The notes below the pieces were generated by a model. It was not told where the DNA came from. It did not search any database and saw only the letters and a list, made by a program, of their open reading frames with translations. From the NCBI RefSeq assembly GCF_963921235.1, contig NC_086097.1, forward strand, positions 9,362,001-9,426,000: a stretch of DNA of 64,000 nucleotides. Reading direction: 5' to 3'. A program made the translations under genes and the position numbers. This stretch comes from Mobula hypostoma. Lineage: Eukaryota. This document shows positions 11,845 through 24,180 of this stretch, piece by piece. How positions within the stretch are numbered: the stretch's first letter is position 1; each line of letters begins with the position of its first letter.

Positions 11845-11898
11845 AACTTCGCCAAGGACAGTCCCGCGCCTGGTTCTGAAGGAAGGAAGGTTGGACAC
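11845..11898 (+). ncRNA. Degenerate twister ribozyme (type P1; part 3' of the cleavage site)
   Basis: AA-CUUC-GCC-AAG-GACAGUCCCGCGCCUGG-UUCUGAAG-GAAG-GAAGG-UUGG follows the twister layout AA-P2-GCC-N3-GCCGGUCCCAAGCCCGG-Nx-P2'-GAGGG-P1'. P2 CUUC/GAAG pairs perfectly. Confidence 0.6.
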
Positions 11899-12096
11899 GG
11901 GACCAGCAACCCATCCCATAAAACCCAGGGCTACAGAAGCGCCAAGAGAAGCTTTGAAGACCTCATTACTGGGAGAGGAAGGATTCTCAAAGATGTACTA
12001 CACCTGGGGACAACTTGAAAGAGTAACCCAGGATAGAGGACTCACTGTTGTTGGGGGCATATGCTGCAGTAGGGATGATGGGCCTCAGTAAGTAAG
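11845..12096 (+). mobile_element. Short RTE-tailed non-autonomous retroposon with twister-like head, copy 1
   Basis: Colinear with 23265-23557. 3' end resembles an RTE terminus (CCCAGGATAGAGGA...GCATATGCTGCAGTAGGG...AGTAAGTAAG). Confidence 0.7.
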
Positions 12097-12239
12097 AGAT
12101 GTGAGCCAATTGGAGGGCAGGGTGGTTAAGATCATATTGACAATTAATTAATGCATATCTCTCCTCTGCTGCTTTTGTTTGAATACAAATACTTAATTGA
12201 GTTTTATGATTTAAAGTATGACCAGTTCAAATTCCTCTG

Positions 12240-22696: not shown

Positions 22697-23225
22697 CAGA
22701 CATCCCACCTCTCCCGGAAGTTCTGGGAGTCTCCCGCATATTAATAGTGGCTCCCTGATGCCCGCAAATTATATACAATGTCACGGAGATCTTTTTTTTT
22801 GAGAGTGAGCGAGCGAGTGAGAGAAAGCAAGAGAGAGCGTGCGAGCGACCACGAGAGAGAGAGAGAGCGAGAGCGTGCCATGGCAGAGTATTCCAAAAAA
22901 TATATAAAACGTACGTCACCCCAGACTACAATAAAGTGTACCCCTGCCTAATAGGGGTCAAAAATAATGACAGTGTTGCTCGCTGCACTGTTTGCAACAA
23001 TATCTTTTCTATTGCCCATGGTGGGTTAAGACTGTAAAAGACATGTTGAGGTAAGTTTAACAAGTGTCATTCGTTCATTAGCATAGCAGTTATTTAAACT
23101 AGCTGGCTAGCTGCTAAGGAGCTACTCTATTGCAGACATCCCACCTCTCCAGGAAGTTCCGGGAGTCTCCTGCAAATTGATGGTGCTACCTCCTTGAAAT
23201 GAGATTTTGCAGGGTGGGATGTCTG
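22697..23225. mobile_element. Non-autonomous hAT-like DNA transposon, copy 2
   Basis: Same TIRs as 3215-4931. 6-bp TSD AAATCA (22691-22696, 23226-23231). Internal second left end starting at 23133. Confidence 0.85.
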
Positions 23226-23264
23226 AAATCATTCAATTTTATCAGAAACTTAATCACTGATTAT

Positions 23265-23557
23265 TACTTTGCCATGGACTGACCTAAGCTTGGCTGGGTA
23301 AGCAGGGAAGTTGGGCATGAGGCTAGTAACCCTATCATAAAAACCCGAAGCTACAGAAGCACCAACAGAAGCTCCAAAGACCTCATCCTGAGTAGGGGAA
23401 GGATCTTTACCTAGAAGATATACGGCATTGTGTGCTGAAAGTGGAAGCAACAGAAACCATAGGGACAATCAATGGTCTATCAGCCCAGGTCAGAGAACTC
23501 TCACCAGCTGCTGTTAGTAGCCTATGTCCCAGAAGGAGTGATGAGATTCGGAAGAAG
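23265..23557 (+). mobile_element. Short RTE-tailed non-autonomous retroposon with twister-like head, copy 2
   Basis: 13-bp TSD AATCACTGATTAT (23252-23264) / AATCACTAATTGT (23558-23570). (GAA)n tail. Colinear with 11845-12096. Confidence 0.75.
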
Positions 23558-24007
23558 AATCACTAATTGTGATATAGTAATGGAGTTATAAAGCTTGAAA
23601 ACAGGCCCTTAAGGTCAACACCTCCATGCCAGCTGTGGTGCCCACCAAACAGGGATCCATTTCGCTATATTTGGTCTATATCCTTCTTACTTGTCTCTGC
23701 ACTGAACTGAGCCTGTGGCCTGCAACTAACAGGCTTCCGACGGCTGTGGACTCATTTTGTGAACTTCAGTTATGAATGCTATTTGTTTACTTTTATTGTT
23801 TGCACAATTTGTTTTTCTTTTTCTCTCTCTCTCTCTGCATGCTGGATGTTTGACAGTCTTCTTTTGTTTTAATGAGTTCTACTGGGTTTCATTGTTTTGC
23901 GGCTTCCTGCCTGTAAGAAGACAGATAATACATACTACAATGTATACCTACTTTAATAATAAATGTACTTTGAACTTTTAAATTGCTTCTATCCATGTCA
24001 TAGACAT

Positions 24008-24180
24008 GAACACAAGAGATTCTGCAGATGCTGGAAATCCAGAACAACACAAACAAAATGTTGGAGGAAATCAGCAGGTCAGACAGCATCTATGGGAATG
24101 AACAAACAACTGACATTTCAGGCTGACGCACTTCATCAGGACTGGAAAAGAAGAGGTAAGAAGCTAGAATAAGAGCTGGT
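24008..24180 (-). mobile_element. Neptune PLE terminal-repeat fragment with decayed hammerhead
   Basis: CTGCAGATGCTGG...GCAGGTCAGACAGCATC...TTCATCAGGACTGG. Confidence 0.75.

Follow-up and report, generated by a model that had tools for sequence, protein, structure and literature searches.

For years, to our knowledge, the twister ribozymes of eukaryotes had no confirmed biological role, and the sole role that we know to have been proposed for them is the 5′ processing of Perere-3, shown in one flatworm. Perere-3 is an RTE LINE of Schistosoma mansoni that carries a twister at its 5′ end (Liu et al. 2021, Nucleic Acids Res 49:10573, PMC8501958). The available text of that report describes a twister whose cleavage leaves a 5′-AA end regardless of the base at −1, target-site duplications (TSDs) that adjoin the AA of the cleavage site, and a TSD that itself forms the 5′ strand of helix P1. 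A Perere-3 twister that lacks P1 is still weakly active, as many as four mismatches in P1 leave active variants, and the element ends in a tail of a short repeat, (GTAA)n (PMC8501958). A second ribozyme class is found in the same position in other retroelements: R2, RTE, baggins and L1Tc are non-LTR elements that carry HDV-like ribozymes 5′-terminally, as the available text of their review describes (PMC6765202).

The window, the whole 64-kb stretch of DNA analysed here, holds two copies of a short repeat with the same signature. Their family is quite probably a dead, non-autonomous retroposon that arose by internal deletion of a Perere-3-type RTE LINE and whose 5′ end was defined by a twister. 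Two points go beyond the sequence-only reading of the window that preceded this analysis: the element derives by deletion from an RTE LINE, and the mechanism is already in print for Perere-3. The family is apparently the first characterised example in a vertebrate-sized genome and the first that is non-autonomous. A literature search that reached a minority of the subscription journals returned no published twister-headed element that is non-autonomous, SINE-like or vertebrate; the supplement of Liu et al. does list vertebrate variants.

Anatomy and decay of the window copies

The copy under study spans positions 23265–23557 of the window on the forward strand, on which its parts, its duplications and the other window copy also lie. 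It is 293 bp long, starts with TACTTTGCCATGG and ends with GATTCGGAAGAAG. Its left TSD, AATCACTGATTAT (23252–23264), matches the right one, AATCACTAATTGT (23558–23570), read directly from the sequence, at 11 of 13 positions, and both mismatches (G/A and A/G) are transitions, which bears out the earlier description of a 13-bp duplication with two transitions. The left repeat adjoins TACTTTGCCATGGACTGACCTAAGCTTGG..., the right one ...GATTCGGAAGAAG. The score of this pair, 8.5, falls between the 95th (7.5) and 99th (9.0) percentiles of the 504 mismatched flank pairs that served as null; the duplication is therefore modest alone and becomes convincing only together with the family.

Five segments follow one another between the duplications. 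The first is a decayed twister-derived head (23265–23314, family positions 1–50), delimited by alignment to 66 other heads and by nhmmer. It corresponds to the 3′ cleavage product that starts at the A of N^AA, this A being mutated to T here, and contains the 5′ strand of P2, an L4/P4 remnant (GACCTAAGCTTGG), a remnant of the P2 3′ strand and GAGGG (GCAGGGAAG), and the P1 3′ strand TTGG. The second is a remnant of a LINE 5′ UTR (23315–23421), recognised by alignment of the family to resident LINE 5′ UTRs; it includes a hairpin, GGCATGAGGCTAGTAACCCTATC, that is kept in the resident RTE LINEs. The third, whose approximate limits of 23422–23481 were read from the copy itself, is what is left of the parent LINE's first ~16 codons, with the start codon mutated to ACG and a 9-bp insertion. 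The fourth, at approximately 23482–23546, is a remnant of the last ~23 codons of that ORF, for which the family reads ..AQDRGLWRAAVGGLCPSRGDGL.., and the fifth is a short 3′ tail, TTCGGAAGAAG (23547–23557), where the family has CTTAAG(AAG)n. In nhmmer, positions 2–278 of the family HMM map to 23266–23549.

The head of this copy is 73% identical to the family consensus. L4, the P2 3′ strand and GAGGG are all mutated, and the conserved twister core that the family keeps is lost here. Read from these mutations, the copy is a decayed relic with a destroyed ribozyme core, from which activity would not be expected. Rfam returned no match at gathering score in the entire 64-kb window, and at E ≤ 10 it returned five weak matches in 23100–23700, no twister among them. 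One snoRNA-like Rfam match (23533–23610) scores 23 bits where gathering requires 50 and was taken as chance. Another abundant repeat (..GCAGATGCTGGAAATCCAGA.CAACAC.CAAAATG.TGGAGGAA.TCAGCAGGTC..) lies at 23990–24100 of the window, in L033 and in the right flank of L005; it recurs inside or beside several twister-headed family copies.

The other window copy, at 11845–12087, belongs to deletion form B and matches HMM positions 1–279 with nhmmer at E 1e-47. The two copies are 72% identical over 141 bp in blastn. The upstream copy starts with AACTTCGCC, in a register identical to that of the copy at 23265, and blastn and nhmmer agree on the common 5′ register that had been claimed for the pair. No convincing TSD surrounds it, the best duplication scoring 5, under the null threshold, and it too is unrecognised by Rfam in the scan of the window. 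The two copies have decayed in complementary ways, again as had been noted: the upstream copy keeps GTCCC and has GCG for the family's AAG, and the copy at 23265 keeps AAGC and has GACCT for the family's GTCCC. A core had been reconstructed from both; the family majority reads GGTCCCAAGCCCGG. Tails also vary, with CCAA- or GTAA-like repeats in place of (AAG)n at window positions 12076–12100 and at the 3′ ends of L036 and L039.

The genome searched comprises 3.48 Gb in 200 contigs. A better-kept copy used as query gave at least 3,559 first-look candidates and the copy at 23265 at least 1,098, both counts being floors and not copy numbers; each query yielded 39 scored non-self matches, at 75–81% and 70–84% identity, respectively. 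The family HMM of 279 positions, built from an alignment of 30 loci and the upstream window copy, gave 77 matches at E ≤ 1e-5 in the DNA of the sampled loci. These copies were mostly chosen by whole-length similarity, with 5′-truncated copies under-represented. One locus, L044, carries three separate copies and no tandem array. Identity to the consensus averages 86% in 62 near-full copies and is 80% in the copy at 23265 and 79% in the upstream one. Head and body have decayed alike (86.2% against 85.7%), which argues for an old family under neutral decay, to all appearance inactive.

The twister head and its 5′ end

The head, judged by its sequence, is a type-P1 twister without P3. The Rfam model RF03160 gave nine matches among 62 scored candidates genome-wide (39.0–46.9 bits, E 3.7e-6 to 6.7e-4) and none in 14 control genomes, and every one of the nine is a family head with the family body behind it. 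No family head reaches the gathering score of 67.2 bits, which is explained by the lack of P3, an optional hairpin, and by a P1 that forms by accident. The cmscan alignments of L031, L032 and L034 match UAAC.CCGC, CGGUCCCAAGCCCG, AAAGG.GGAGGG and the P1 3′ strand. The core nucleotides (UAA, GCC, GUCCCAAGCC, UAAA and GAGGG) stand in the correct order both in the family majority and in the cmscan-aligned heads. The genome has 29 exact matches to a four-segment core and the reversed control not one; the linker is always 6–7 nt long, so that P3 is absent.

Pairing was scored in 67 aligned heads. The helices and pseudoknots expected of a twister are there: the share of paired cells is 88% for P2, 78% for P4, 82% for T1 and 69% for T2, where the partners of T1 and T2 are those that we take from the literature to apply in these heads. 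All 15 assigned pairs together, P1 included, are paired in 73% of cells, against 40–51% in slid controls. Helix P1 itself is not inherited. The flank upstream of it is unconserved and its cells are 52% paired, which is chance level next to the slid controls, and this is the state expected of a retrotransposed 3′ cleavage product. Covariation in the 67 heads does not rise above shuffles, as expected because the copies are dead, and the double changes in P4 lie at CpG sites; support for the fold comes only from the consensus and the Rfam model.

A sceptic might put the resemblance to a twister down to chance, or to convergence of a GC-rich hairpin region, on what would then be merely a 5′-defined fragment of a LINE, and could point to the scores under the Rfam gathering cut-off, the missing P3 and the lack of covariation. 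We consider this extremely improbable, given genome-wide E-values down to 3.7e-6 with empty control genomes, and a four-segment core found 29 times forward and never reversed. It is also at odds with the close match to twisters of the same LINE clade: CUCC/GGAG in P2, GUCCCAAGC in L4, GAGGG, and UUGG in the P1 3′ strand are common to this head and the T-variant twisters of Perere-3 in Table 1 of Liu et al., and in these four segments it does not differ from S. mansoni twisters of that table whose activity is experimental (PMC8501958).

The twister reading of the head places its 5′ end at the site of cleavage, and this is where the end of the family lies. Among 51 copies that were not chosen by way of the head, information content is 0.02–0.21 bits at positions −15 to −1 and 0.95–1.76 bits at +1 to +14. 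The base at −1 is A in 18, C in 10, G in 6 and T in 17 of these copies, and the four upstream P1 positions read CCAA in full in one of the 51. BLAST gives a similar result: with a near-consensus copy as query, in which the first A is base 6, 30 of 39 alignments start within bases 1–7 and the other nine at 16–30. No sampled copy has homology upstream of the first A, in a sample that is biased to full-length copies.

Duplications point to the same base. In 63 near-full copies (L001, L040, L053 and L054 were left out as duplicates), set against the same 504-pair null, 27 have a TSD above the null 95th percentile and 36 do not. These 27 significant TSDs end at offset 0 (10 copies), +1 (7) or +2 (3) from the first A, offsets that are indistinguishable because the element begins with AA; the remaining seven end at −7, −5, −4, −2, −1, +3 and +4. 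In the null, 162 of 504 pairs fall at offsets 0 to +2. The TSD of the copy at 23265 was scored as ending at −2 owing to its A/G mismatch and ends at offset 0 by eye, so that a twister remnant at the extreme 5′ end with a TSD adjoining the AA position is found in this copy as it is in the family. TSD lengths range from ~8 to 22 bp, with a median of 12.

The sequence-only reading had anticipated a sharp peak of 5′ junctions at the A, and this is where conservation begins and where 20 of the 27 significant TSDs end, at 0 to +2. It had also proposed a search for loci that retain the upstream P1 strand. No copy has conserved sequence upstream, and where P1 is formed it makes use of flanking target DNA. 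Such is the case in L037 and L031, in both of which the P1 5′ strand is flank; in L037 the TSD, AGAGACCCAAT, itself provides the strand CCAAU. At the level of the family, the shared 5′ end and the missing P1 5′ strand thus fit the 3′ product of a twister, as that reading had supposed. From the family pattern and the analogy with Perere-3, we infer that the twister cleaved itself at N^AA.

Ordinary SINEs owe their sharp 5′ ends to a transcription start, and the end of this family might likewise be a Pol III or Pol II start at the first A, with the twister-like head a relic. In favour of such a start one can cite that cleavage is deduced here from sequence patterns, and that the copies stand without P1, a condition that makes a twister less active (Liu et al. 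2021, PMC8501958, available text). Against it, the element has no tRNA-like head according to ARAGORN and no other RNA gene known to Rfam. The end also coincides with the cleavage site, one position out of ~55 in the ribozyme, and the same coincidence holds for the mapped cleavage of Perere-3 (PMC8501958). A transcription start is unlikely on balance, and an end defined by twister cleavage is the preferred reading.

One locus departs from the simple arrangement of a single copy between its duplications. On the reverse complement of L059, at 1410–1764, one TSD pair (..CATAATAAA..) encloses a fragment of a head (family positions 2–87), a few additional bases and a complete copy. This looks like a template jump of the reverse transcriptase, made at a true RNA 5′ end onto another RNA.

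An internally deleted RTE LINE and its resident relatives

The family element is ~280 bp long and consists of the twister, a 5′ UTR, ~16 N-terminal codons, 23–45 C-terminal codons and an (AAG)n tail. Translated in frame, the 3′ half gives ...AQDRGLWRAAVGGLCPSRGDGLKKK, and the N-terminal reading of L024, MKLCGESG.HRADQPS, is similar to the way in which full RTE ORFs begin. The peptide profile of the element gave one weak match in a word-indexed protein search, and an exhaustive profile search gave six, of which only P0001 was informative. P0001 is a 164-aa protein from a public contig, found by a profile of ten element translations. The two halves of the L024 peptide match it at E 3e-4 (N-terminal part) and E 3e-8 (C-terminal part), the longer deletion form C (L097) matches residues 112–143 at E 1e-10, and the translation of the upstream window copy matches its C-terminal part at E 4e-12. 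The translation of the copy at 23265 is too decayed to match by itself (E 0.3).

P0001 leads to the full proteins. Of 1,029 candidates, 601 are longer relatives of it at E ≤ 1e-5, and the best 120 of the 601 are mostly single ORFs of ~1000 aa that combine an endonuclease (PF03372/PF14529), a reverse transcriptase (PF00078) and a PF20049 domain. Among the relatives listed, the named hosts are four Schistosoma species, snails, a tubeworm, amphioxus, loaches, a bichir and a lungfish. The N-termini (MTLCSES..., MKFCGQS...) and C-termini (...ERAAQDRALWRTIVGGLC...) of these RTE ORFs line up with the two coding remnants of the element, which are homologous to RTE-clade ORFs including the schistosome relatives. 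No intact ORF bearing an endonuclease and a reverse transcriptase domain is present in the element, where only the first ~16 and the last 23–45 codons are left. On this homology the element reads as an internally deleted, non-autonomous RTE LINE. It exists in at least three deletion forms, which keep from 23 to ~45 C-terminal codons.

Two other candidates for the origin of the head were rejected. A tRNA-type SINE finds no counterpart, ARAGORN returning no tRNA-like gene in five loci, and a Pol III SINE head was set aside after Rfam gave no ribosomal or signal-recognition RNA in the family loci or in the window. Besides the twister, Rfam gave four weak matches to miRNA families in five loci, all outside the element, and the fold of the whole element is unremarkable (z = 0.56). 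Two unrelated predicted proteins, P0003 and P0005, contain repeated ..RPxSQ(D/N)(R/K)(G/D)(S/V)WRAAV.. units that match the C-terminal motif of the LINEs; these units may be exonised fragments of the element.

The genome also holds related LINEs, with 52 matches to the full RTE ORF. One of them, L070, has an open frame of 1018 aa and an (AAG)n tail after the stop codon, and the same tail lies 3′ of the stop codon in L072 and L076. Family positions ~40–217 align to the 5′ UTRs of L070, L071, L073–L075 and L082 at E 5e-14 to 1.5e-19, and the alignment with L070 covers positions 40–219, from GAGGG-UUGGG and the next hairpin onward. Upstream of this point, where the twister would have its first ~39 nt, the six LINEs have ~75 nt of a different sequence, and a third lineage (L077 and L079) has ~170 nt there. 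The regions with the shorter segments lie at 1240–1400 of L070, 230–330 of L073 and 250–350 of L074 (all on the reverse complement), at 200–300 of L071 and at 170–260 of L075; those with the longer ones lie at 100–290 of L077 and at 80–240 of L079 on the reverse complement. The replacement segments in these sister LINEs may be swapped 5′ processing or promoter modules. On the first of these readings, the 75-nt and 170-nt sequences may be processing elements that have so far escaped recognition, possibly new ribozymes. Two independent LINE copies, L074 (reverse complement, 220–250) and L075 (140–180), begin exactly where a different abundant repeat (..AATTCT.CTCCTGTGTCT..) has its 3′ end, a common start that could reflect target preference or a shared 5′ extension.

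Searches for a parent with both the twister and a full ORF returned other lineages and short elements. Rfam found no ribozyme in L070 or at four other LINE 5′ ends of lineage ii, and no twister in six related metagenome loci. In 17 LINE-end stretches, found with the full RTE ORF or its C-terminal part, two other lineages occur and no recognisable twister; five LINE 3′ ends picked for likeness to P0001 all belong to the L070 lineage. No full-length twister-bearing LINE was found among the 27 of 29 exact-core matches examined, all of which are short elements.

The latter result bears on how the short elements multiplied. They may never have had masters of their own, the deletion forms having arisen repeatedly from the RNAs of a full-length twister LINE in which alone cleavage took place. 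The existence of at least three forms that differ in the length of the ORF C-terminus would agree with repeated origin, as would the template jump that L059 appears to record. Within each form, on the other hand, many copies share one breakpoint, which fits amplification of a few founder deletions, and no full-length parent turned up among the intact heads examined. Repeated origin from a full-length LINE therefore strikes us as distinctly improbable, and we retain a non-autonomous family that was itself amplified, the 5′ end of each insertion probably being set by the twister.

The full-length ORFs P0012, P0025, P0027, P0055, P0081, P0099, P0113 and L070 are 54–76% identical over ~1000 aa. 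These values come from comparisons between genera, among schistosome flatworms, snails, amphioxus, fishes and the present genome. Such identity is high for hosts so distant and may reflect horizontal spread of the LINEs. A wider proposal is that the twister is the ancestral 5′-processing module of one animal-wide RTE lineage and has been swapped repeatedly within single genomes, an idea that we offer tentatively and rate as rather doubtful.

The proposed cycle and its known counterparts

The preferred reading can be written as a cycle of six steps, of which the third, fourth and sixth rest on patterns in the sequence and the first, second and fifth are drawn from the family pattern and the analogy with Perere-3. 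The element, which has no recognised promoter of its own, would first be transcribed inside longer host transcripts. The twister would then cut before the first A and release an RNA that starts with AAC... and lacks the P1 5′ strand. An RTE reverse transcriptase, acting in trans, would use the LINE-derived 3′ end and the (AAG)n tail, and target-primed reverse transcription would give rise to the TSDs. When the cDNA reaches the last base of the RNA, the new copy would start at the A of the cleavage site, directly after the TSD. Its new flank would serve as a random P1 5′ strand; most copies would for this reason be poorer ribozymes, and only some would be able to act as sources. Insertion would be followed by neutral decay, as in the copy at 23265, with its 80% identity to the consensus and its destroyed core.

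A family of thousands of copies that bears the Perere-3 signature in a large animal genome indicates that the partnership of twister and RTE LINE is old or mobile and not a peculiarity of schistosomes. It also suggests that this partnership is able to drive non-autonomous elements. Most twister relics of animals can be expected to escape the Rfam thresholds, because retrotransposed copies are necessarily without half of P1.

Comparison with Perere-3, as the available text describes it (PMC8501958), shows the same arrangement in both elements. Each has a type-P1 twister at its 5′ extreme, a TSD at the AA, a P1 5′ strand supplied by the flank or the TSD, a place in the RTE clade and a repeat tail. 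Unlike Perere-3, the present element is non-autonomous and ~280 bp long, its ORF gone except for both ends; its head is without the P3 that the Perere-3 twisters have, and its tail is (AAG)n instead of (GTAA)n. The host also differs, being an animal with a genome of 3.48 Gb, and the family is old and inactive.

The likeness to elements with HDV-like ribozymes concerns the function of the ribozyme, which in both cases would free a promoter-less retroelement from a co-transcript and set its 5′ end (PMC6765202, available text). The two ribozymes differ in what a round of retrotransposition costs them: an HDV-like ribozyme cleaves at its own 5′ border and remains complete, whereas a P1-type twister loses one P1 strand per round. 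Short, internally deleted derivatives of the HDV-like class are the R2 SIDEs and NARTc, and there as here the non-autonomous deletion derivatives retain the ribozyme and the 3′ end. The family further resembles the hammerhead retroposons, the SINE-like Sm-alpha elements of schistosomes and the retrozymes, in being short, non-autonomous and equipped with a small self-cleaving ribozyme, as the available texts present them (PMC6765202, PMC7229834). Those elements carry a hammerhead and are processed from multimers or circular RNAs; here the ribozyme is a twister and the copies are dispersed single insertions with TSDs.

The last comparison is with the SINEs derived from tRNA, 7SL and 5S RNA, which the family matches in length, copy number, LINE-derived 3′ end and TSDs. 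Unlike these canonical SINEs, it has no head of the Pol III type, and its 5′ part consists instead of a ribozyme, a LINE 5′ UTR and coding remnants.
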